Shown piece by piece: positions 8,704 through 64,000 of a DNA stretch of 64,000 nt. The notes under the pieces were generated by a model. The model was not told the origin of the DNA, did not search any database, and saw only the letters and a list, made by a program, of their open reading frames with translations. Numbering within the stretch: the stretch's first letter is position 1; each line of letters opens with the position of its first letter. Made by a program: the position numbers and the translations under genes. The DNA is from a virus: the UHGV virus genome UHGV-1493261. One strand, written 5' to 3'.

Positions 8704-8826
8704 CATGATAAAGTTTATCGACTGGTTGTTCTGTATACCGCCGCTGAGTGCTGAGATCCGTTCCCTGATAATATATTGAAGTCTCTGGGGTTATAATAGC
8801 ATCACATATAACCCTGGAGACACCAC

Positions 8827-10257
8827 ATGATCCCTATCCTTGAAACAGTCCACCGACTTCGCGAAACCAAAGGCAGCAATGCGAAGAAAGCCGTGCTGAC
8901 CGAAGCATTCAAGAACAACCCAGACTTGGCAGACTTCCTGCAGTATGTCTATGACCCAATGACGTCGTTCTATCGGACTGAGTTGAAGCTCAGCGCGTAC
9001 CCTCGCATGCTCGTCCGTGAGAAGACCGATGACATTAGCGAAGTCTATGGCGTCCTCGACCAGATGGCGCAGCGCCTTGTCGGTGGCCAAAAGGCTGATG
9101 CCCTGTTGGCCTCTGTCGCCCTGAAGATGGATCCCCAATACCACGAACTCATTCAGATGATCCTAGACCGTGATATCAAGGCGGGTATCGCTGAGAAGGG
9201 CATCAATGCAGCGTTCAAAGCAGCGGGTGGCACAGGCCGACTGATCAACATTCTTCCGTATCATCGTTATGACAACATGACGATTGACCTGCTGAAGAAG
9301 ATGGACTTCAAGCGTGGTGTCTACAGCCAGCTGAAGTCAGACGGTATGTTCGCCAACATCATATGTCGGTACAATAAAGAGCCTGAGATTCGCTCTCGAT
9401 CCGGTTCCCTTATCGCAGGCGGTTCGGTTGACAACCTGTCACTGGTGTTCAAGGACATCATCTACGATGCGGGGATTGGTGAGAGTGTGTTCCATGGTGA
9501 ACTTCTCGTTGTTGACCTCAAGTCGAATACCATCCTGCCTCGTGCTGTCGGTAACGGTAAACTCAACAGCGTGATTCAGACAGGAGAACCCCTAGAAGAT
9601 CGTTATCGGGTGATCTACCGGGTGTGGGATGTTGTGCCGTATGAACAATGGTTCAACGCCCAGCGCGTGGATACCCCGTATGAGCGCCGCTTCGATATCA
9701 TCCAGCAACTGTTTGATGAAGACGACGGTCTGGTTCAGGTTCAGGAAACTCGTGTTGTTCACTCATTTGCCGAAGCCGTCGACCACTTCAAAGACGCGCT
9801 GGCTCGCAAAGAAGAAGGCACGATATGTAAGGCCGCAGACATGCCGTGGGAAGATGGTACTTCTTCTGAAGGTCTGAAGCTGAAGATGGAGGTTGAGTGT
9901 GACCTTGAAATCGTGGGCTTCAACGAGGCCGACAAGAAGGGTAAACACGCCAAGACTTTTGGCTCACTGATTTGTAAAACTTCCGACAGCCTGCTTGTTG
10001 TTGGCGTATCAGGGATCTCAGATGAGCTGAGACGCCATATGTGGGAGAACCAGGGCGATTACATTGGCAAGATCGCCGCAGTGCTCTCCAATGGCGTACA
10101 GGACAAGACAGACGATGCGATGAAGTCTTTGTTCCTACCTCGCCTTGTAGAAGTCCGCATTGACAAGAAAGTGGCCAACACACTGGATGAAGTCTATGCG
10201 ATACAGAAAGCGTACATCGAAAACATCGCATTCCTGTTGGAGAAGGGAAATGGGTGA
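8827..10257 (+). CDS. ATP-dependent DNA ligase (T4 gp30-like)
   Basis: 476 aa. Adenylation motif I KSDG (K-x-D-G); motif IV-like EEGTICK; motif V-like LKLK. Confidence 0.8.
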   Translation: MIPILETVHRLRETKGSNAKKAVLTEAFKNNPDLADFLQYVYDPMTSFYRTELKLSAYPRMLVREKTDDISEVYGVLDQMAQRLVGGQKADALLASVALKMDPQYHELIQMILDRDIKAGIAEKGINAAFKAAGGTGRLINILPYHRYDNMTIDLLKKMDFKRGVYSQLKSDGMFANIICRYNKEPEIRSRSGSLIAGGSVDNLSLVFKDIIYDAGIGESVFHGELLVVDLKSNTILPRAVGNGKLNSVIQTGEPLEDRYRVIYRVWDVVPYEQWFNAQRVDTPYERRFDIIQQLFDEDDGLVQVQETRVVHSFAEAVDHFKDALARKEEGTICKAADMPWEDGTSSEGLKLKMEVECDLEIVGFNEADKKGKHAKTFGSLICKTSDSLLVVGVSGISDELRRHMWENQGDYIGKIAAVLSNGVQDKTDDAMKSLFLPRLVEVRIDKKVANTLDEVYAIQKAYIENIAFLLEKGNG

Positions 10258-10487: not shown

Positions 10488-10745
10488 ATGGACGAGCTAT
10501 TCGCATTGGTGATTGCATTAACGTTCTTACTGTCCTTGATTATCAGCTCGCTTGTGTTGTTGCTGGTGTGGATAGCTGTTCCCGAGATCAATAACCACAA
10601 GGCGCTCGTTGTCGTGATTATCCTAGGTCTGAGTGCTTCCCTTACTCTTCACTATTCCAAACAGGAGTATAATCCTAACAAATATTACAAGACATTAGCG
10701 GACAAGTATCATGAGTTTAAGAATGAAAGAGCTTCCGGTAAATGA
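10488..10745 (+). CDS. Hypothetical membrane protein
   Basis: 85 aa with two hydrophobic helices; AGAGGTG RBS. Confidence 0.5.
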   Translation: MDELFALVIALTFLLSLIISSLVLLLVWIAVPEINNHKALVVVIILGLSASLTLHYSKQEYNPNKYYKTLADKYHEFKNERASGK

Positions 10746-10965
10746 CAAGAAGTACATGTACAAGGTTCTGCTGAGCCTCGGGGTGTCACAATCTGGGCTG
10801 GCTCGTTTATTGGATTGTTCTAATGTTGTGAACTACTGGGCGAAGGGATATCGTGTTGTCCCCCGCTCATTCCGTCGCTTCATCCTGGTGTTACAGTTCA
10901 TCAAGAAGAAAGGGCTGATGGAAGAGTTATTGCAATTTATTAAAGAAGAGGAACGCAAATGCTAA
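10711..10965 (+). CDS. Small helix-turn-helix protein (start uncertain)
   Basis: HTH-like GVSQSGLARLLDCSNVVNYW; candidate ATGs at 10711, 10723, 10759. Confidence 0.4.
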   Translation: MSLRMKELPVNDKKYMYKVLLSLGVSQSGLARLLDCSNVVNYWAKGYRVVPRSFRRFILVLQFIKKKGLMEELLQFIKEEERKC

Positions 10966-11618
10966 CAGAGTGGCAGAAGATGGAGTTCGAGCGGGCGTTC
11001 AACGTTTACTGTGTCTTCATGGCGATCAAGCTGCACTTCACCACTAAGGACTTCGATTACAGCTTGTATGGACCTATGAATTACAAGTTCGAGACGTTCT
11101 TGGCGAAGGAGGCCGTGTGCAAACAGTTTGCTCGCCTTGCCCGTCGGTTCGAGTCGTCACAGGGTGAAGTGGTAGAGAACTACATCATTGCCAACTTCAT
11201 CAAATCACCCAAGACATGGGTGACGACATTGCTTACACGCCAGGCTCAGGCCAATTATGATGAATACCGTAAGCTGTACGAGAACTTCACATATAACTTC
11301 CTTGAGGAGTTCGAGCGGGAGATGATCCCTGCCATAAGGGAGCGCAACTGCACCTTCATTGAGTACATCAAGGGGACGGGTACAGGTCATCCACCGTTGC
11401 TAACAGACATCATCATCAAGAAGTTCCCGATTTGGTTCCTTGTCGGTCTGAACAAGATCGTTGGTTTCATTCATCTATACGATACGATTCTGCGTGATGA
11501 CATCTACTGGAACTCAGAGGCGTTCTTGCTCAGGAAGACGAATGCTGTGGTTCCGGATGAGGATACCACATATTCAAAACAGAGACTCCGTGAGCTAATA
11601 CAAGCCCACGGAATCTGA
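10959..11618 (+). CDS. Putative helicase loader (T4 gp59-like)
   Basis: 219 aa (T4 gp59 is 217 aa); lies between ligase and the hub block; weak remembered similarity only. Confidence 0.35.
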   Translation: MLTEWQKMEFERAFNVYCVFMAIKLHFTTKDFDYSLYGPMNYKFETFLAKEAVCKQFARLARRFESSQGEVVENYIIANFIKSPKTWVTTLLTRQAQANYDEYRKLYENFTYNFLEEFEREMIPAIRERNCTFIEYIKGTGTGHPPLLTDIIIKKFPIWFLVGLNKIVGFIHLYDTILRDDIYWNSEAFLLRKTNAVVPDEDTTYSKQRLRELIQAHGI

Positions 11619-44059: not shown

Positions 44060-45641
44060 TCAACCTTTCTTCTTTTGCATCATGGCAAGAAGGTTCACAC
44101 GGCGCTTGTGTGACCAGCCGACCACGTCGAGGATAGACTGAATCGGATCAATGAAGGACTTCTCAAAGGCCGCCTGATAATCCACCCATTTGCCCAGACC
44201 AAGCTCCTCAGGGAAGAACTCAGGATATGCGAAGTAATTCTGGCCGAATGGGTTGCCCGGCTTCAACAACACCATCTGTACCTTATCACCAGACTCGATC
44301 ATCGGTAGACCCAGATCTTCGTTCTTCTCAACCAGACGGTTGTAACCCACACAAGCCTTGGCAGCAAAATGAGCACCAGAGATGAACGATCCGTCAGCAG
44401 CCACACACTTCTCTATGTCGGACACGCCTGACGCCTTGGCGATATCGTCTACAGAGAGTTTCATGTACTCCTCTTTGTACTGGGAGATGAGCGTCTGCAC
44501 TTCCTCTTCGGTGCCGAGTAGGATCTTCTCATAGCACTTAACAAGACGCTCACGACACCATTCCGGCGTGGTGGACTTGCGGGCTTCCAGACCTTTGAAC
44601 TTGATCTTCGGCTTCTCGTACTTGATACCCTCACTGTCGTACACGGCCATGGCATACATCTTCTTGGCTCGCCAGACAGCGGCTGACGCAATGACCTCAC
44701 GCTCCCATACCATGCGCTGTTCAAATCCGTTCATGGTGTTACACAGAAGCTGTGCCCACTCATTGGTCTTCGGCTGGTAGTTGTCTTTGATCCATTGGTC
44801 GATATTATCAACCATAGCATGATGGTCAGTAACATCAGGCCACAACTGCTTGACAAGACGCTCAATGCAGATGTAGTTGGAGTCGGTATCCCCTGCGATG
44901 ACGAAGTCCTGGCCTGTTGTACCACACAGCTTGTTCAGATAGTCATCAGTGTAACGCTTGTTCCACTTGTTGATCAGCTGACCGGATGTGGTGATGGCTT
45001 CGGCAATGTTGAGGTTGAAGTACTCTTTGAACCAGACGTTCGAGATAGCGCCATAACCTGCGTTCATCAAGATCTTCAGACCTTGCTGTAGGGTGTCTTG
45101 AGCAACACCCAGATCTTCCCACTTCTTCATCACTTCGGTCAGGGCATCAAGATCAATGTTCTTGTGCTCTTCATACCACTCTGGGTCATAGTAGCGAGAC
45201 TTCATGGCAGACTCAAGATGGAAGTCGCCCTTCGACATCTCTTTACACCAGCCAGCCCACTGCTCATACTTCAGACCCTTGGCCTTCTCTACTTTACGGT
45301 CGCTGTAGATACCACGCATGATTTCAGACAGGAACGACATCTTCTCGTTGCTGAAGAATTGAACGTTCGGCGTGAACGACACGTTGTAGCGGCGCAGGGT
45401 TTCAAAGTGGAACTCACCCAGGGCAACCAACTCATCAACAACCTGCAGGCGTTCGTCAACCGCACGCAACAGCTTGTCGTGAAGGGCTTTCATCAACCGA
45501 CGTTTGTGCATCGGCGTTGCCATGTTATTCATCTGAGCAGCCAGCTCTTCACACATAGCCTCAATAATCTCACGGCGCTGGTGTTTGTCGCCAACGATAG
45601 TCTCTGGACCGAGGTTGTACTGCTGAATGATGTGTGGATAT
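44060..45641 (-). CDS. DNA polymerase (family B, T4 gp43-like), exon 2
   Basis: Begins YPHIIQQYNLGPETI (completes motif A; T4 SLYPSIIRQVNISPETI). Motif B KILMNAGYG; motif C VIAGDTDS. The first 16 codons of the ORF-track ORF are assigned to the intron. Confidence 0.8.
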
Positions 45642-46824
45642 CGCTTGTGTTCAGGGATGCTCGCTATTTCATCCCCCGTGTTCGTCATTCAGTTTACCGA
45701 ACACTGCTGTATGTCACCATACAGGCCAGACTATATCACAATCTCCAGAACTGTCTAGAGATTCTCTCCATTTCGAGGCGCTTGCCCCTACTCTACTCGC
45801 TTCAGATCAGACGCTTAGTCGTCGGTCTTGCTTTCGATAGTCGTTGAACCTTGTCACCCACTACTTCAAGGAAATCATCTGGGTTTAACCCAGCGTAACC
45901 AAAGAGTCGTTTGAAGTTTCTTGCCAACTTGCCCCACTCTACAGTCTTCTTACCTAAATCCTGTTGTGTCAAGCAATGAGCGGTTATTTCTTCCCCACTC
46001 ATTCTGGCAAACATTTCCTTCCTTTTCTCTAAAGAATCTTTAAATTTCTTCTTCGCTTTCGGATCGGCGTTTGGTCCCACCTGGCCTTTCTTTGCGCCTA
46101 TTATACATTTCAACTCACCACTCAAATATCTCGGGTCTTGCGTTGAAACTTTGATAACACTACCATCCAGGAGTCTTACGGGGACAGTGCCTTTGTGAAC
46201 AAGACTGGAATTGGCTTTAATTCTTTCAGCTGTTTCTTTATCAGCGCCGAAATAAGCCTTACCCTTCATATCTGCCCTTTTAACACCCTTCTTAGATTTG
46301 GATATCTTTCTTCTGACATCTTCCCTCTTCGAAGGATTCCCTTCTCCCGTCAACATTTCAACATTCTTTCTTCTCAATTCCTCACTTAGTTCCCCGTTAT
46401 GGGATTTCATCATGAAGTAGGCGAAGAACGCTGATTTATCTTCTGGTAATGCTTCATGCAATAGGCGATGAGCCTCCACATGATCTTTGTACAACAGGTT
46501 TACGATATTCCATTCTTCTTTAGAGAACTCAGGATAATGCGCCTGGGGCAGTATATGATGGTGCTCACTGTATTCATCACCATCATAACTGTGTTCCTCA
46601 CAGAACTTCAAATATTCTTCTATCTTAGATTCTTCAATTACCAAATCATTTCGATAGAACAGACTCTTGATTTCCTTCATGACCTTACTCCTTCACCGTG
46701 GTTACAGAGTATTTAGGTCTTCGTGGCCGACCTTGGCTGCTGATTATCTCTAAAGAGACTTCCCAGCAATTAAGAGAGTTATTCGATGGTTGTCGCCAAC
46801 CAAAGCCCCTATGCTGCTAACTTA
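45642..46824 (-). mobile_element. Group I intron (inferred) in the DNA polymerase gene, carrying an HNH homing endonuclease
   Basis: Exon 1 stops 5 codons after DLNSL; exon 2 resumes at YPHII. Boundaries placed so the 5' exon ends in U and the intron ends in G, giving DLNSLYPHII. GATATAGTC (S-element-like) lies near the 3' end. Confidence 0.6.
45802..46680 (-). CDS. HNH homing endonuclease (intron-encoded)
   Basis: 292 aa. HNH motif HHILPQAHYPEF...NIVNLLYKDHVEAH; Lys-rich C-terminal DNA-binding region. Confidence 0.75.
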   Translation of the reverse strand: MKEIKSLFYRNDLVIEESKIEEYLKFCEEHSYDGDEYSEHHHILPQAHYPEFSKEEWNIVNLLYKDHVEAHRLLHEALPEDKSAFFAYFMMKSHNGELSEELRRKNVEMLTGEGNPSKREDVRRKISKSKKGVKRADMKGKAYFGADKETAERIKANSSLVHKGTVPVRLLDGSVIKVSTQDPRYLSGELKCIIGAKKGQVGPNADPKAKKKFKDSLEKRKEMFARMSGEEITAHCLTQQDLGKKTVEWGKLARNFKRLFGYAGLNPDDFLEVVGDKVQRLSKARPTTKRLI

Positions 46825-48242
46825 AGGGAGTTCAAATCTTCCGAGAAGACCCAGAAGTAGATTCCTGGTGTCACATCCATGACGTATGCACCCTCAAAGT
46901 CGGTCGGACCATCGTATACACGCTGGATCTTAGGCACTATCCCCTTCTCATACAGGCGATAGTAGCACATGGCCAGCCACGGAGCCACAGTGCCCAGACC
47001 GTCTTCATAGTTGGACTTGGTGCGGTACGCAAGGACGAACATCAGCTGGAGCAGACGCAGCTTCTGTTCAAGTCGCCATACCAGCTTAACGTCTTTGATA
47101 CCATATCGGGTGTGTTTGCAGTAGTCGTTGAAGTACAGATCAAAGAGCGACTTGCTCTCACTGTAGTCCATCTTCTTCTCACCCAGCTCACAATACGCAA
47201 TCCAGTCAAGAGAGTAGCGTTCACGGGTGGTGTACGTGTGTTTCTTGTAGATCTGCATATAATCGAGCATAGGGCAACCCACGAACTGATACGTCGTGAT
47301 GTCACCCTTCTTATCACGGATGATGCGCTTCTTAATGATGCCCCAAGGACTGAGGCGCGACGTTTCAGCCTCACCCAGAACCTGATTCATGCGCTCAACA
47401 AGATAAGGGCTATCAAACGTCTCAATGTTCCAGCCAGTCCATCCGTCGAACTGACGCTGTGACCAGAAGTCTAGGAACGAGCGCAGCAGATCTTGTTCGG
47501 TGGTGAACTCCTGATAAACAACCTCAAGGCCGCCGATCTCTTTGTCTTCGGTGTCATATGCGAACTTATTGCGGTCTTTGGCACAGGGCATACCCCAGAC
47601 CATGAACTTATTGGTCGCCATATCCTGAAGCTGGATCAGGGTAATGGGGAACGCCGCATTCATGTCTTGGGTGATCTTGCCGTTGCTGTCAATGATAGGG
47701 AACTGATCAGTGACGTTGTTGCTGATGAAAGAACCAGGGAAGTGCTCACGGACAAAATCATGGTTGGCCAGCACTTGTTTATGGAAGCGGCGAATGCGCG
47801 CCTCATTCCCTTTGAACGTCTGCTGCTCAATGGTTGGGTGAGGGAATGGACCTTTGGTCATCTTTCCGTCTTTCCACCCGGCGGAGAACACTTCGATATC
47901 GAGGTTAGCAATATGGATGTTGGTGTAATCCGGCTCAATCTTTCCAGGAAAGCTATGGGCGATGAACTGGTATGCATAATCGGTCTGCCCGTAAATGGCA
48001 GCACCCTGGACTTCCTTGTACTCTTCAAGATAGTTGTCAGCGTCACGCATGGAAGGGAACTGCTTGGCTACCAGGGGTTCATTGAGCAGGCCGACCTTTT
48101 CAACATTTGAATAGTCAGCCGTGGGTAAATAGAGAGTAGGTTCGAATTTCTTTTTCAACAGACGGCGATTACCCATGTCATCTGCAATTCGAATCAACAG
48201 GTCATTGCCCCTGCGGGCAACGTTCGTATAGAAAACGGTCAT
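46825..48242 (-). CDS. DNA polymerase (family B, T4 gp43-like), exon 1
   Basis: N-terminal 3'-5' exonuclease domain (Exo I ANLDIEV); ends in the first half of motif A (DLNSL). Confidence 0.8.
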
Positions 48243-48936: not shown

Positions 48937-49149
48937 ATGAAAGTGGTAAACAAGAGATTGCTCGTCACCCAAGGCGGGGCGACGATAGTGCGCGGAAGGA
49001 TCTATGAACAGACACAGCTGGGTGATCACAAGACGCGCCTGACTGTCAAGGCTCCCGATGGTGGTTGGCCGACAAAGGTGATTGTCCCTGACGGTCTCAT
49101 AGAACGAGGGACGGCAACGTACAAGGGAGCAGAGTTCAAAATTTATTAA
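48937..49149 (+). CDS. Hypothetical protein
   Basis: 70-aa ORF. Confidence 0.45.
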   Translation: MKVVNKRLLVTQGGATIVRGRIYEQTQLGDHKTRLTVKAPDGGWPTKVIVPDGLIERGTATYKGAEFKIY

Positions 49150-49244
49150 AATATTTATTGAATAAAGTTTACTTCTTCAATAACTGGCGTATACTTCTAA
49201 TTGTAGTACGAACAAACAACAATCTGAAGAGAAGGAAATACATC

Positions 49245-49802
49245 ATGGCAATCGAAATTATCGCTCAATCCAAATCTGGCAAAACTGTAATGTACGGTAC
49301 TGAAGAAGGCCGCACAATCACCACTCTGGTCACAATTGACGGTTCCAACCCAGTGAAAGGTGGTCGCTACCTGGTTGAATACGGTTCACGCCTGCTGATG
49401 GTAAGCAAAGTCGATGGTCGTGAAATCATGATTCCCCGCAAAGAGTACTTCGACTCACGCATTGAAGCCATGAACTTCTTCCTTTTCCAGGAACGTCACG
49501 AACTGTTCGTTGAAGCGAAAGACGCAGGCCTGGACGATGCGACTGCCGAGCTGATTGCCGAAGGTAAAATGTCCCTCGAGGAAGCTCTGGGTGACATGGA
49601 TTGCGAAGCCGAAGCCCATTACATCGAATATTCCGCTTATCAGAATGAATGTGAAGACGATCTTGAAGATGACGGCTTCGACCCTGACCTTCACGGTGGC
49701 GAGGATGACAATACTCCTTCACTGGAAGTGATCATGGCAGGCGGTCAGGCCGCCTGGGAGTGGCAGAACGAAAAGAACGCCTGGCTGGATTCCCGCCTTT
49801 AA
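49245..49802 (+). CDS. Hypothetical protein with acidic C-terminus
   Basis: Start at internal ATG (MAIEIIAQSK) with AGAAGGAAA RBS; promoter-like TTTACT-16 nt-TATACT upstream. Confidence 0.5.
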   Translation: MAIEIIAQSKSGKTVMYGTEEGRTITTLVTIDGSNPVKGGRYLVEYGSRLLMVSKVDGREIMIPRKEYFDSRIEAMNFFLFQERHELFVEAKDAGLDDATAELIAEGKMSLEEALGDMDCEAEAHYIEYSAYQNECEDDLEDDGFDPDLHGGEDDNTPSLEVIMAGGQAAWEWQNEKNAWLDSRL

Positions 49803-49816
49803 TGTGAAGAAATAAA

Positions 49817-49842
49817 GAAAGGGGCTTAACGCCCCCTTTCTT
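49817..49842. terminator. Bidirectional intrinsic terminator between convergent genes
   Basis: AAAGGGGC-TTAAC-GCCCCCTTTCTT between the plus-strand stop (49802) and minus-strand stop (49841). Confidence 0.6.
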
Positions 49843-50299
49843 ATTCATCCCAGAAGTCGTCATCATCCCCGACAGCAGCCAGTTCCGTGTCAAGTTCTTC
49901 ATCAGTAAACGGTGGCAGCACCCCGTTCTGAATCAGATAATCCATCTCATCGTCTTCCAGCTGCAGATCAGTGGCAATATACAGCGCTCCACTGCCCTCT
50001 TCGTCCGTCTCGATGCTATACGAAGTGTATGGCACCCCATTCACCGTGATGATAATAGAGGTCGGATCCTCTTGATCTACGTGCGCCTCAAACGGTACGC
50101 CATCAATCGGCGCATCTTCCAAGAAGGTGGCAAGGGCTACTGCAGCACGAACAACATCAGTGCCTTCAACGCCTGCATAGATCTCTTCCGCACCCGTCTC
50201 TTCACGTTCAAACAACTCAATCGTGATACCGTCTTGAACACCAGTCCATACGGGGATGTCATTGGTGTATTCTGATTCAAACAATTTGGAGGTTGGCAT
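49841..50299 (-). CDS. Highly acidic protein
   Basis: 152 aa, extremely Asp/Glu-rich (ends DDDDFWDE); preceded by two copies of the CCTAAATACCCC motif. Confidence 0.5.
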   Translation of the reverse strand: MPTSKLFESEYTNDIPVWTGVQDGITIELFEREETGAEEIYAGVEGTDVVRAAVALATFLEDAPIDGVPFEAHVDQEDPTSIIITVNGVPYTSYSIETDEEGSGALYIATDLQLEDDEMDYLIQNGVLPPFTDEELDTELAAVGDDDDFWDE

Positions 50300-50444
50300 G
50301 TTAGGTTCCTCAGTGGGTTAGCCATATGGGGTATTTAGGCTTCCCGCTTGGCAAAGCCTGGTTTGTACAGGACGCATATCGGAAATGTTGGAGGAAGGTT
50401 TTCATAGATACCCCACACTGGTTGTATGGGGTATTTAGGAGGGA

Positions 50445-51659
50445 TCAGGAAGGGGTGAATTCGTTTACAGGCACTGCTTCGGGGATAGCCAGTTCAGGAC
50501 ATGCTGCCTTCATCGGCTCGATGTACGGCTTGCTACCCACAATCCAGAACAGAGTGTTCTCATTGAGCAACTCTGGCTTGTTCTGCTGGATCCAGGTCAT
50601 GACCTTGCCTTCATAGCGAGGATGCAACTCAATATCACCCCACTGATATTCCATCAGGTCATTGTAACGAACCCAATTAGTGGTGTGAAGATCCCAATGG
50701 TGTACCTCAAAGCGAGGAAGCACGACCTCTGGCTCTTCCTTCTGCCTGATACCACTTAGGAGGCCAGCCAGAGAAACGCTCTTAGAGGCATGCTGAAGCT
50801 CCTTCTTACCGTGTACATAGTCTGGGTTGTCGTGATAACGACGAGTGAAGTCGACAATGTGTGGCAGATTCGCCTGTTTACCGATGATGCGCAGGCGGCT
50901 CTCGATAAAGTCAAGGCGGTTAGGACCGATGCCGATCAGATACACACGCTTCAGATTAGGTTTAGGGTGCATCGCCAGTCCAGTCAGAATGCTTGTGCAT
51001 GAGTTGCAGGATCCAGCAGGGATAATCAGATCGGTAATATGGTCAGGGATGTTGGCAACCTGCTCGCCACCCAGCATATGGAACCCAGCAATCCTCTCAG
51101 GGGAGTGGGTTGTATGGTCGAGAGTGATACCATACTCCAGATAATACGCCTTTGGATTCTGTTGTTCGATCAACTTCTTACAGCGCGGCTGGATGGTGCT
51201 GTTGTATCCCGATCCGACGAAGTTGAACTCACTACCAAACCAGGCCGACATTGCCACCATGTCGTGGTTCATACATGTCGTGGGTTTGGTCGCGCCGAGT
51301 ACAGTAGTTGTGTGGCCACCGAAGTGCCGAGAGACTGCTGTCGCCATAGGGGACTGTGGACTACCAACGACAGTGCCGTGGATGATGTCGGGGGAGCCTC
51401 CGGCCTTGAGGTGCTCAACCATCAGCCAGATGGCCTGACGGAGTTTGCTGCCGTTGATACCCTGTTGGCCATTCGCGTAATTGGACAACGGTGCGAAGTA
51501 ATCTTCACGCTTGAACCAGACCTGCTGGTTGGTTTCGGGATTGACGACAAGTTCACACGGGGTGTGCTTGTAGAGATAGTCTTCCCAGTGAACCAGATTG
51601 CGGTCGAGGGAAAGGGTATCGAAAATGGTCTTGTTCATTCTATTTTCTCCTGTAGACAT
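50445..51659 (-). CDS. PLP-dependent fold-type II enzyme (ACC deaminase / D-cysteine desulfhydrase-like)
   Basis: 404 aa. FKREDYF ... GINGSKLRQAIWLM ... GTVVGSPQSPMATAVSRHFGGHTTTVLG parallels the ACC-deaminase pattern KRDD ... GGNKTRKLE ... TAGGIQSNHARQTAA with the PLP Lys in N-G-S-K. Confidence 0.55.
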   Translation of the reverse strand: MSTGENRMNKTIFDTLSLDRNLVHWEDYLYKHTPCELVVNPETNQQVWFKREDYFAPLSNYANGQQGINGSKLRQAIWLMVEHLKAGGSPDIIHGTVVGSPQSPMATAVSRHFGGHTTTVLGATKPTTCMNHDMVAMSAWFGSEFNFVGSGYNSTIQPRCKKLIEQQNPKAYYLEYGITLDHTTHSPERIAGFHMLGGEQVANIPDHITDLIIPAGSCNSCTSILTGLAMHPKPNLKRVYLIGIGPNRLDFIESRLRIIGKQANLPHIVDFTRRYHDNPDYVHGKKELQHASKSVSLAGLLSGIRQKEEPEVVLPRFEVHHWDLHTTNWVRYNDLMEYQWGDIELHPRYEGKVMTWIQQNKPELLNENTLFWIVGSKPYIEPMKAACPELAIPEAVPVNEFTPS

Positions 51660-51708
51660 TGGCTTATCATAGTGTATCTACAGGAGTATAGAAAAGGAGA
51701 ATCTCGGC

Positions 51709-52371
51709 TTATTTCTTGAATAAACGAAGGAACTTCATCATGTTGTCCATGAAAGTCGGCTTCTTGACCTTTTGTTTTACCGGAGCGCCCTGATCATTCA
51801 GAACACGACTGACCGGAGGAGTAGGCGGTGTCGGCGCTTTCGTTTCACAGGCCGGAACGATGTTCACGTCATGATGAGAAGACTCAGCTGTAGTGTTAAC
51901 AACATTGTTCTCCTGGACGACGACAGGCTTGACGAGATTCTTTTCATACTCGCGAGCCATGGCCTGGTACTTCCGATTCTCTGCGTCAAAGTCCATAGAA
52001 ACGACTTTACGACGGCGGCGCGTCGCGCTCTCATCACCATAGAAATCGTATCCGTTCTTGACCAGCCAGTGTACAGCTTGGACAAATGAATGGAAGATCA
52101 TGAACGGCTGGCCATTACCCTCTTCAGCAGCGGTGATGCCGGTGTAGCCCATGAGCACAACCTGACCCTTTACGTCGAGGTCAAAGGATGTACATTCACC
52201 GTGCTGGTTCAGATCACGCGGAGCCAGCTGGGAATCACGATGGATATAATTCGGCGACAAAAACTCATTCAGAGTTCGTTTGTTGCCTTTGTATTCAAAC
52301 AGACGAATACAGATGGGAGTTGTCAGTTCATGCCATTCGGCATCGTTGACCCAGATAGAAACATTACGCAT
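51709..52371 (-). CDS. Hypothetical protein
   Basis: 220-aa ORF; Pro/Thr-rich linker and basic C-terminus. Confidence 0.5.
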   Translation of the reverse strand: MRNVSIWVNDAEWHELTTPICIRLFEYKGNKRTLNEFLSPNYIHRDSQLAPRDLNQHGECTSFDLDVKGQVVLMGYTGITAAEEGNGQPFMIFHSFVQAVHWLVKNGYDFYGDESATRRRRKVVSMDFDAENRKYQAMAREYEKNLVKPVVVQENNVVNTTAESSHHDVNIVPACETKAPTPPTPPVSRVLNDQGAPVKQKVKKPTFMDNMMKFLRLFKK

Positions 52372-52471
52372 CGGTGTATCCTCAAATCAATGGATAGGGG
52401 TTTAACGGTTAAATTTTAAACCATTCTATCTCATTGAACAAATACAGAATGGGAAGGATGGACAAAAGAAA

Positions 52472-52500
52472 GCCGGATAAGGACATCCGGCTATACCACA
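52472..52500 (-). terminator. Intrinsic terminator
   Basis: Minus strand AGCCGGAT-GTCCTT-ATCCGGCTTTCTTTTG, downstream of the tRNA island. Confidence 0.55.
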
Positions 52501-60236: not shown

Positions 60237-60280
60237 ACTAAATACCCCCTAGATGACATGAATACATTTAGGGGTATTAC
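60237..60280 (+). promoter_or_regulatory. Promoter-like CTAAATACCCC motif with hairpin leader upstream of the tail spike gene
   Basis: CTAAATACCCCCTA...TAGGGGTATT inverted repeat ending 5 nt before the ATG at 60283; same architecture at 63485-63523 and, on the minus strand, at 50326-50439. Confidence 0.4.
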
Positions 60281-60282
60281 AA

Positions 60283-63484: not shown

Positions 63485-63523
63485 CCTAAATACCCCATAT
63501 TGGTCATCCTTTATGGGGTATTA
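63485..63523 (+). promoter_or_regulatory. Promoter-like CCTAAATACCCC motif with hairpin leader upstream of the second tail spike gene
   Basis: CCTAAATACCCCAT-(14 nt)-ATGGGGTATT, then ATG at 63526. Confidence 0.4.
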
Positions 63524-63525
63524 TC

Positions 63526-64000
63526 ATGATTTCTCAATTCAATCAACCACGCGGCTCCACTTCCATAGAAGTTAACAAACAATCTATCGCTCGAAATTTC
63601 GGTGTCAAAGAAGACGAAGTCATTTATTTCACTGCTGGTATTGATCTCAGCGGATTTAAAGTAATTTATGATGAGTCTACCCAACGGGCTTATTCTCTTC
63701 CTTCAGGTATTGTTTCAGGAACCACTGCTGTTAGTCTTAGTGCTGACGCTGTTCTTGTGCACTCAGCTGGTTCTATAGACCTCGGAGAATTAGCCGTATC
63801 CCGTGAGGAATATGTTACATTGCCCGGGTCCTTTAATTCTGGTGCTACGCTTAATGCTAAAAATGAAATACTTACCCATACAACAGGAAAATATCGTTGG
63901 GATGGTGAATTACCTAAAATAGTGCCTGCTGGTTCAACTCCAGATAGTACTGGCGGTGTTAAATTAGGAGCATGGGTTAGTGTTGGTGATGCATCACTGC
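63526..64000 (+). CDS. Tail spike protein (second paralog), 3'-partial at window edge
   Basis: N-terminus MISQFNQ...VIYDESTQRAYSLPSGIVSGTTAVSLSADAVLVHSAGSIDLGELAVSREEYVTLPGSF...GKYRWDGELPK...WVSVGDASL duplicates the internal module of the upstream spike. Confidence 0.65.
   Translation, partial: MISQFNQPRGSTSIEVNKQSIARNFGVKEDEVIYFTAGIDLSGFKVIYDESTQRAYSLPSGIVSGTTAVSLSADAVLVHSAGSIDLGELAVSREEYVTLPGSFNSGATLNAKNEILTHTTGKYRWDGELPKIVPAGSTPDSTGGVKLGAWVSVGDASL

Follow-up and report, generated by a model that had tools for sequence, protein, structure and literature searches.

The internal proteins (Ips) of phage T4 are diverse, injected inhibitors of type IV restriction enzymes that are united only by a capsid-targeting sequence (CTS). 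This signal comprises about 10 residues, with aromatic residues at positions 4 and 7, a hydrophobic residue at position 8 and Glu at position 10, and mutagenesis of IPIII has shown positions 4 (aromatic) and 8 (hydrophobic) to matter for targeting and processing (PMC9026906). Phages of the Ackermannviridae, whose DNA carries hypermodified thymidine, find wide use in therapy and biocontrol, and the ViI-like members of this family carry a small acidic protein that has been known since 2012 as an 'unknown structural protein'; the gene itself is therefore not new. Here we analyse this gene in a 64,000-nucleotide (nt) stretch of the virus genome UHGV-1493261, all of which is referred to as the window, where it occupies positions 49841..50299 of the minus strand and encodes a protein of 152 amino acids (aa). 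It is very probable that the gene is expressed late, that its product is a virion protein and that its doubled promoter motif arose by deletion of a neighbouring gene encoding a protein with an ART-PolyVal domain (the ART gene).

The source of the window is assigned to an Agtrevirus-like, ViI-like phage of the Ackermannviridae, because positions 49000-51700 share 95.7% nucleotide identity with Salmonella phage vB_CECAV_050 (Agtrevirus; CECAV_050 below) and the gene neighbours agree. The same region matched 266 phage records, almost all of them with the hosts Salmonella, Klebsiella, Escherichia, Dickeya and Shigella, and every record that was opened belonged to the Ackermannviridae. The acidic open reading frame (ORF) starts with ATG, 6 nt after a Shine-Dalgarno sequence (GAGGAA, 50306..50311, minus strand). 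It is judged to be a genuine gene and not a chance ORF because its product matches phrog_3852, a family of unannotated function, over residues 1-152 with an E-value of 1.1e-81, indicating full-length homology, and because homologues occur in 278 phage records, where all those inspected were Ackermannviridae. Orthologues include LIMEstone1 ORF174 (YP_007237496, 95.4% identity), Sajous1 gp115 (78%) and ViI Vi01_184 (64%). An earlier, sequence-only reading of this DNA had described an extremely acidic 152-aa protein with a DDDDFWDE tail, and both the ORF and its composition bear this out. The protein contains 21 Glu and 19 Asp but only 1 Lys and 2 Arg (40 acidic residues, or 26%, against 3 basic residues; net charge approximately -37), its C-terminal tail reads ...VGDDDDFWDE, and among the products of the window's 102 ORFs that start with ATG and encode 100 aa or more it is the most acidic. 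Direct calculation from pKa values gave an isoelectric point (pI) of approximately 2.9; the value of 4.05 returned by Biopython is identical for nearly every family member and looks to us like the lower bound of that program's search. Net charge stays between -33 and -40 across the family down to 45% identity, with a frameshifted Vi01 entry (-25) as the exception, and many Asp/Glu columns of the family alignment are invariant.

Orthologues of the acidic protein have been detected in the virions of relatives. In LIMEstone1, ORF174 and the ART protein, ORF173, are both annotated as 'confirmed structural protein' on the basis of electrospray ionization tandem mass spectrometry, each from one peptide, with 12.5% coverage for ORF174. 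This coverage corresponds to 19 of the 152 residues, and EETGAEEIYAGVEGTDVVR has just this length; trypsin can release only one other mid-sized peptide from the protein. The single peptide is therefore not evidence of low abundance, since a protein so poor in Lys and Arg yields few tryptic peptides. In CsCl-purified Sajous1 virions, gp115 was represented by 31 spectra and the ART protein gp116 by 10; for comparison, the baseplate tail tube protein gave 24 spectra, the prohead protease 13, and the scaffold and large terminase 4 each. According to the LIMEstone1 authors, each of the unknown structural proteins of that phage is matched by a structural counterpart in ViI; the ViI record gives Vi01_183 and Vi01_184 the label 'phage associated protein', and virion support for Vi01_184 is indirect. 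The sequence-only reading had favoured a structural or scaffold role and had named virion proteomics as a check, which these published data on orthologues largely answer: the protein is a component of mature particles and is therefore not a scaffold expelled at maturation. Presence in virions agrees with the structural half of that proposal, while its scaffold half conflicts with occurrence in mature particles, with a gene position outside the head module and with a beta-rich predicted fold. A search of the cryo-electron microscopy literature found no virion structure that assigns the acidic protein.

Upstream of the acidic gene lie two copies of the late-promoter motif CCTAAATACCCCATA, of which TATGGGGTATTTAGG is the reverse complement as it appears on the plus strand. 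The proximal copy (50325..50339) and the distal copy (50425..50439) are identical over 15 nt and lie 100 nt apart. Both copies reported by the sequence-only reading are thus real, with the correction that they and the gene are read on the minus strand. The core of the motif family, TAAATA, corresponds to the T4 late promoter. The longer form CTAAATAcCcc is listed as an Ackermannviridae regulatory element (PMC7283392). LIMEstone1 encodes T4-type late machinery (late sigma factor, gp33 and the gp45 clamp), and its site homologous to the proximal copy is annotated 'putative late promoter'. The 11-mer CTAAATACCCC has four exact and two one-mismatch matches in the 64 kb against 0.5 expected, and six matches were reached in 0 of 100 shuffles; the remaining two exact copies directly precede the two tailspike genes. 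The match to the motif, its position upstream of genes and the tie to the late tailspike genes all support the assignment of these predicted promoters, and the acidic gene is a predicted late gene across the family. A literature search for Ackermannviridae transcriptomes returned nothing relevant.

Comparison with relatives accounts for the doubling of the motif. In Yersinia phage CAU_YEP3, Dickeya phage LIMEstone1, ViI and Sajous1, a gene for a protein of 149-154 aa lies between the acidic gene and a gene for an enzyme that depends on pyridoxal phosphate (PLP) (L003:3007-3465, L007:2016-2465, L009:9642-10091 and L001:5091-5555 in the retrieved loci). This ART gene, found in 227 phage records, matches Pfam ART-PolyVal (PF18760) at 3.7e-10 and also DUF3990. 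The window, CAU_YEP3, LIMEstone1 and CECAV_050 were aligned, the gene being 459-465 nt long in the relatives; the window and CECAV_050 keep its first ~32 nt and last ~38 nt and miss ~395 nt of its interior. Ag3 carries the same scar. What is left in the window is a 31-codon frame-shifted ORF, MKTFLQHFRYASCTNQALPSGKPKYPIWLTH followed by a stop codon (50310..50405, minus strand), with the deletion junction at approximately 50373/50374. Of the two motifs, the distal one originally served the ART gene as its promoter; the proximal one, which in relatives overlaps the stop codon of that gene (GCC TAA ATA), is in all of them the promoter belonging to the acidic gene. We therefore read the doubled motif as a deletion scar, because the copies are promoters of two genes that were brought together by the ~395-nt ART deletion, with no special bearing on expression strength; in intact relatives the acidic gene likewise lies downstream of both promoters, merely farther from the distal one. 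The suggestion in the sequence-only reading that the doubling implies strong late expression is thus not supported, and a deliberate tandem promoter arrangement was rejected on the alignment with ART-bearing relatives. The ART gene has been lost from an Agtrevirus clade. For the reading of genomes in general, the locus is a caution that closely spaced duplicate promoters may be deletion scars rather than expression boosters.

In T4, genes e, soc and 49 have a late promoter that lies within a hairpin occluding the ribosome-binding site. The ART scar and the tailspike genes of the window share this design, with the TAAATA promoter in the 5' arm and the Shine-Dalgarno sequence and ATG in the 3' arm. 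At the scar, the hairpin (50402..50440, minus strand) has the distal promoter as its 5' arm and GUGGGGUAUCUAUG, which holds the Shine-Dalgarno sequence and ATG of the ART remnant, as its 3' arm. Its minimum free energy is -18.1 kcal/mol (z-score -4.8), and an equally stable fold arose in 0 of 200 shuffles. Across this hairpin and those of the two tailspike promoters (60238-60282 and 63486-63528, plus strand), folding energies run from -15 to -20 kcal/mol and z-scores from -3.7 to -4.9. By analogy with T4, such a hairpin would mask the ribosome-binding site of a read-through transcript and leave that of a transcript started within it exposed, and the 'cCcc' of the family motif may be conserved as the anti-Shine-Dalgarno arm that silences translation of read-through transcripts. 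Nearly every full copy of CTAAATACCCC forms the 5' arm of a strong hairpin whose 3' arm, GGGGTAT(T), abuts the downstream ATG, with further sites at L003:2974, L005:42918, L006:21732 and 23298, upstream of 3001 in L011 and L012, and upstream of 8001 in L015; the sole exception seen is the acidic gene's proximal promoter in ART-type lineages. The acidic gene itself has the T4-like design in other genera: three metagenomic relatives, Serratia phage 3M and phiEa2809, whose ART gene is absent or elsewhere, have a single promoter of the CTAAATA type in front of it, and behind this promoter an inverted repeat closes on the ATG. In the lineage of the window, by contrast with the T4 genes, its proximal promoter has no such hairpin.

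The best-conserved linear features of the acidic protein are the N-terminal M-x-x-S-K/T-L-F-E-S-E and the C-terminal D-F-W. Residues M1, S4, L6 and F7 are invariant and E8 and E10 nearly so, which places the unstructured N-terminus among the most conserved parts of the protein. An AlphaFold2 model (mean predicted local distance difference test score, pLDDT, 78; predicted template modelling score, pTM, 0.74) shows an alpha/beta core rich in beta structure (residues 16-125), preceded by 15 unstructured residues at the N-terminus and followed by an acidic tail that is disordered (residues 132-152). Scans of Pfam, NCBIfam and PADLOC with the acidic protein gave zero matches, a sequence-profile search of the PDB gave just three weak, unrelated matches, and a Foldseek search of BFVD returned the protein's own family and nothing else. 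All Foldseek matches in the PDB had E-values of 0.1 or worse, with the T5 tail terminator at the top (E 0.1, template modelling (TM) score 0.18); the type III secretion chaperones ExsC and AvrPphF ORF1 were among the fold matches, with scores too weak for use. When 1.8 billion cluster representatives were searched exhaustively with a profile, nine proteins emerged at E<=0.001. Two of these, the long repeat proteins P0034 and P0035, were discounted as spurious, their profile match being confined to a 30-residue beta-hairpin stretch, and a search of viral contigs for related loci with the distant members P0032 and P0029 found none. In Vi01_184 (P0027, L007:2501-2956), a 23-residue stretch, IMHRYRARMCPRCRSPCNVLRRR, differs from all 20 relatives between normal flanks, and in the deposited ViI sequence it looks like the product of a pair of compensating frameshift errors.

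Whether the protein is carried as cargo was considered in relation to the T4 CTS. The ART proteins begin with MKTFLEFYRE (ViI) and MKTFLQYLQE (LIMEstone1), and in the T4 genome IPII and IPIII begin with MKTYQEFIAE and IPI with MKTFKEF. A strict CTS pattern matched five start positions in LIMEstone1 ORF079, ORF080, ORF082 and ORF167 (two alternative starts), with ART ORF173 as a sixth match, and matched none of the other ~1,500 LIMEstone1 ATG ORFs; three strict-CTS genes encode virion proteins confirmed by mass spectrometry. Five LIMEstone1 genes have an MK.F..[YF][LF].E start (L005:8540-8779, 8789-9358 and 10520-11011, L006:29807-29992 and L003:3007-3465). The Ackermannviridae probably load internal proteins in T4 style, because CTS-like starts occur in virion proteins and because these phages have T4-type gp21, gp22 and gp23. 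A literature search for a CTS or internal head proteins in Ackermannviridae or CBA120 found nothing. With its ART-PolyVal/DUF3990 match, near-T4 CTS and detection in virions, the ART protein looks like a miniature analogue of T4 Alt. The N-terminus of the acidic protein, MPTSKLFESE, agrees with MKTYQEFIAE of T4 at positions 1, 3, 7 and 10 (M1, T3, F7 and E10) and contains L-F-E, an L-x-E motif, and the loose pattern M.T...[FY]..E was matched by 1 of the window's 723 ATG ORFs, namely the acidic gene. The gene is also independent of the ART gene: it occurs in 278 records against 227, and it is kept with its own late promoter where the ART gene has been lost.

The best explanation overall, to which we assign a probability of about 0.5, is that of a conserved, late-made Ackermannviridae virion protein that serves as cargo. 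The protein would be made late by gp55/gp33-type late transcription and then built into the particle. As internal or ejected cargo it would travel with the Alt-like ART protein of relatives and enter the host like the T4 Ips and Alt, and in the host its polyanionic surface could act as a nucleic-acid-like decoy for a DNA-binding or defence protein, an action to which the disordered acidic tail with its invariant D-F-W would contribute. Taken singly, the proposal that the protein is internal or ejected cargo rather than a building block of shell or tail is tentative and falls somewhat short of even odds, and a nucleic-acid decoy function is doubtful. Every T4 Ip is injected and inhibits type IV restriction enzymes, which would make particle-borne anti-defence cargo a reasonable model where the phage DNA is hypermodified. 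Quite unlikely is the most specific form of the idea, in which an Ackermannviridae CTS system would load an effector set including the miniature Alt-like ART protein, and the acidic protein would be an ejected polyanionic decoy with the variant peptide SKLFESE and the D-F-W tail. Such a decoy would arrive with or ahead of the hypermodified genome and neutralise host DNA-binding defence, and it would, to our knowledge, be without precedent both as an acidic 'internal protein' and as a DNA mimic delivered by the virion. A conserved, apparently abundant polyanionic virion protein beside a CTS-tagged ART protein is in any case a candidate for host-takeover or anti-defence cargo outside the T-even phages.

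Several observations weigh against this explanation. Detection in virions concerns orthologues only, and the mass spectrometry of the relatives did not separate head from tail. The acidic protein has no aromatic residue at position 4 and no hydrophobic residue at position 8, and it does not match the strict CTS pattern. T4 IPI, IPII and IPIII have net charges of +2, +4 and +9, and a protein at -37 would be repelled by packaged DNA. Searches of Pfam, the PDB and Foldseek gave no sequence or fold relation to the known DNA mimics Ocr, ArdA and Arn. Ocr-type mimics block BREX, and the Taipeivirus phage phiHS2 (Ackermannviridae) is BREX-sensitive; Taipeivirus phages such as Menlow carry the acidic gene, and this sensitivity counts as a weak negative, with carriage of the gene by phiHS2 itself unchecked. 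Strictly late synthesis is questioned as well. The leader of the acidic gene in the window has no hairpin (z-score -0.27), leaving the Shine-Dalgarno sequence unoccluded, and a candidate early-type promoter, TTCAATGAGATAGAATGGTTTAAAAT (TTCAAT-N14-TAAAAT, 52413..52438, minus strand), lies upstream, one mismatch away from the genus motif TTCAAT-N14-TATAAT (PMC7283392). Directly preceded by a terminator-like hairpin (52471-52492, minus strand) and situated 41 nt before a 220-aa ORF, this candidate heads a same-strand unit that would comprise the 220-aa ORF, the PLP enzyme gene, the ART scar and the acidic gene, with no terminator until 49842. It could feed read-through transcripts into the acidic gene. 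Because the Shine-Dalgarno sequence is unoccluded and an early-type promoter lies upstream, synthesis in the window's lineage may not be strictly late, with some of it occurring earlier.

Some of these points bear directly on other explanations. The lack of separation between head and tail and the failure to match the strict CTS pattern would also suit an external or tail-associated structural or adaptor component, a building block of the neck, baseplate or branched tailspike complex instead of cargo. The exact promoter type is common to the acidic gene and the tailspike genes, and baseplate and tailspike genes, as well as a late gene for a 'tail needle knob' (LIMEstone1 ORF169, Sajous1 gp119), lie a few kb away from the acidic gene. 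We consider such a role somewhat unlikely: in most genomes the acidic gene adjoins and is co-transcribed with the CTS-bearing ART gene and not with tail genes, a disordered polyacidic tail and extreme charge would in our view be unusual for a tail building block, and the weak T5 tail terminator match amounts to no fold similarity to known tail proteins. The same adjacency to the ART gene, co-oriented and with no intervening terminator in LIMEstone1, CAU_YEP3, ViI and Sajous1, is what would be expected of a partner of the ART effector, that is, an inhibitor, immunity protein or chaperone that keeps it inactive or packaging-competent and is co-packaged by association. Detection of both proteins in virions and the presence of ExsC and AvrPphF ORF1 among the weak fold matches point in that direction, whereas the wider distribution of the acidic gene and its retention after loss of the ART gene do not, and this role is distinctly improbable.

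The resemblance to DNA-mimic anti-restriction proteins goes back to the dense negative charge typical of that class, here 26% Asp and Glu, which is conserved family-wide with many invariant acidic positions, and a protein of the Ocr/ArdA type newly made in the cytoplasm would fit the unoccluded Shine-Dalgarno sequence and the early-type promoter of the window's lineage; its detection in virions would then be adventitious. As to availability before genome entry, the promoters are late, early read-through is possible in the window's lineage and delivery in the virion is possible. Other lineages have a late promoter only, together with a hairpin predicted to prevent translation of read-through RNA, which would be too late for incoming DNA, and the 31 spectra from CsCl-purified Sajous1 virions are well above the contaminant level of that data set. 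With the sensitivity of phiHS2 and the missing sequence or fold match to any DNA mimic added, a cytoplasmic mimic is very improbable. Least probable of all is a role in the prohead scaffold or core, with degradation or expulsion at maturation. Like T4 gp22 the protein is acidic, and it is expressed late and has L-x-E motifs at residues 6-8 and 29-31; its orthologue is, however, abundant in mature virions, the head module of the phage family, which lies elsewhere, already holds gp22, gp21 and a gp67/68-like core gene, and the predicted fold is beta-rich and globular rather than coiled-coil.

The gene neighbourhood is that of the Ackermannviridae, with a B-family DNA polymerase at ~44-48 kb consistent with this family, five tRNAs at 52.7-53.5 kb and the tailspike genes at 60-64 kb. 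Upstream of the acidic gene lies the PLP-dependent enzyme gene (50445..51659, minus strand), identified by a PF00291 match (8.3e-7) and synteny as the orthologue of ViI gp226, which is among five proteins sufficient for formation of the hypermodified thymidine base 5-NeOmdU (PMC5889632). The two genes share a strand, and no terminator separates them. The 220-aa ORF (51709..52371, minus strand; phrog_4050, 'MRNV...' family) is the first gene of this same-strand unit and is syntenic with the acidic gene in every lineage examined. At the other end, the unit is closed by an intrinsic-terminator-like, bidirectional hairpin (49815..49842, minus strand), and the LIMEstone1 and Ag3 annotations place terminators at the homologous sites. 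The position of the acidic gene is thus conserved, closing the PLP-enzyme unit and convergent with the cluster beside the DNA polymerase. A small module is made up of the genes for the acidic protein, the ART protein, the PLP enzyme and the 'MRNV...' protein (220-292 aa); its order varies among Ackermannviridae lineages, with the acidic gene always last, ahead of the convergent terminator (L015:5325-8441, L011:817-3456, L012:421-3456 and window 49841-52371). The convergent neighbour that shares the bidirectional terminator (49245-49802, plus strand; phrog_4823, 185 aa from an internal ATG) is the second most acidic ORF of the window, with 22% Asp and Glu, a pI of approximately 4.2 and a very acidic C-terminal half. 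The DNA polymerase gene (44060-48242, minus strand) is in two pieces, one for the N-terminal 477 aa (46809-48242) and one for the C-terminal 542 aa (44060-45688), separated by a 292-aa HNH-type endonuclease ORF (45802-46680) that presumably marks an intron carrying a homing endonuclease, as is the case in LIMEstone1; in CECAV_050, the closest relative, the gene is uninterrupted (3000 nt).

Compared with known systems, the acidic protein resembles the T4 Ips in late expression and in presence in mature particles, as indicated by the late motif here and by virion mass spectrometry in orthologues, and the neighbouring Ackermannviridae ART protein bears a near-T4 CTS and would be a small analogue of Alt. 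The Ips, injected anti-restriction proteins that are non-homologous and evolve fast, differ in being basic and hypervariable, whereas the acidic protein is at -37 and conserved family-wide, with a partial CTS match and a hypothetical ejection. Unlike T4 gp22, gp67 and gp68, it is encoded outside the head module, has a beta-rich model and is present in the mature virions of an orthologue. T7 Ocr, ArdA and T4 Arn are likewise small and strongly negative, as is the acidic protein with its conserved Asp/Glu, which nevertheless has no sequence or fold similarity to them, has a late rather than an immediate-early promoter and is virion-borne. The closest counterparts are LIMEstone1 ORF174, Sajous1 gp115 and Vi01_184, which are alike in length, position, late promoter, SKLFESE and C-terminal DFW; the window, Ag3 and CECAV_050 differ from these phages in that their ART gene has been deleted, so that two promoters now abut.

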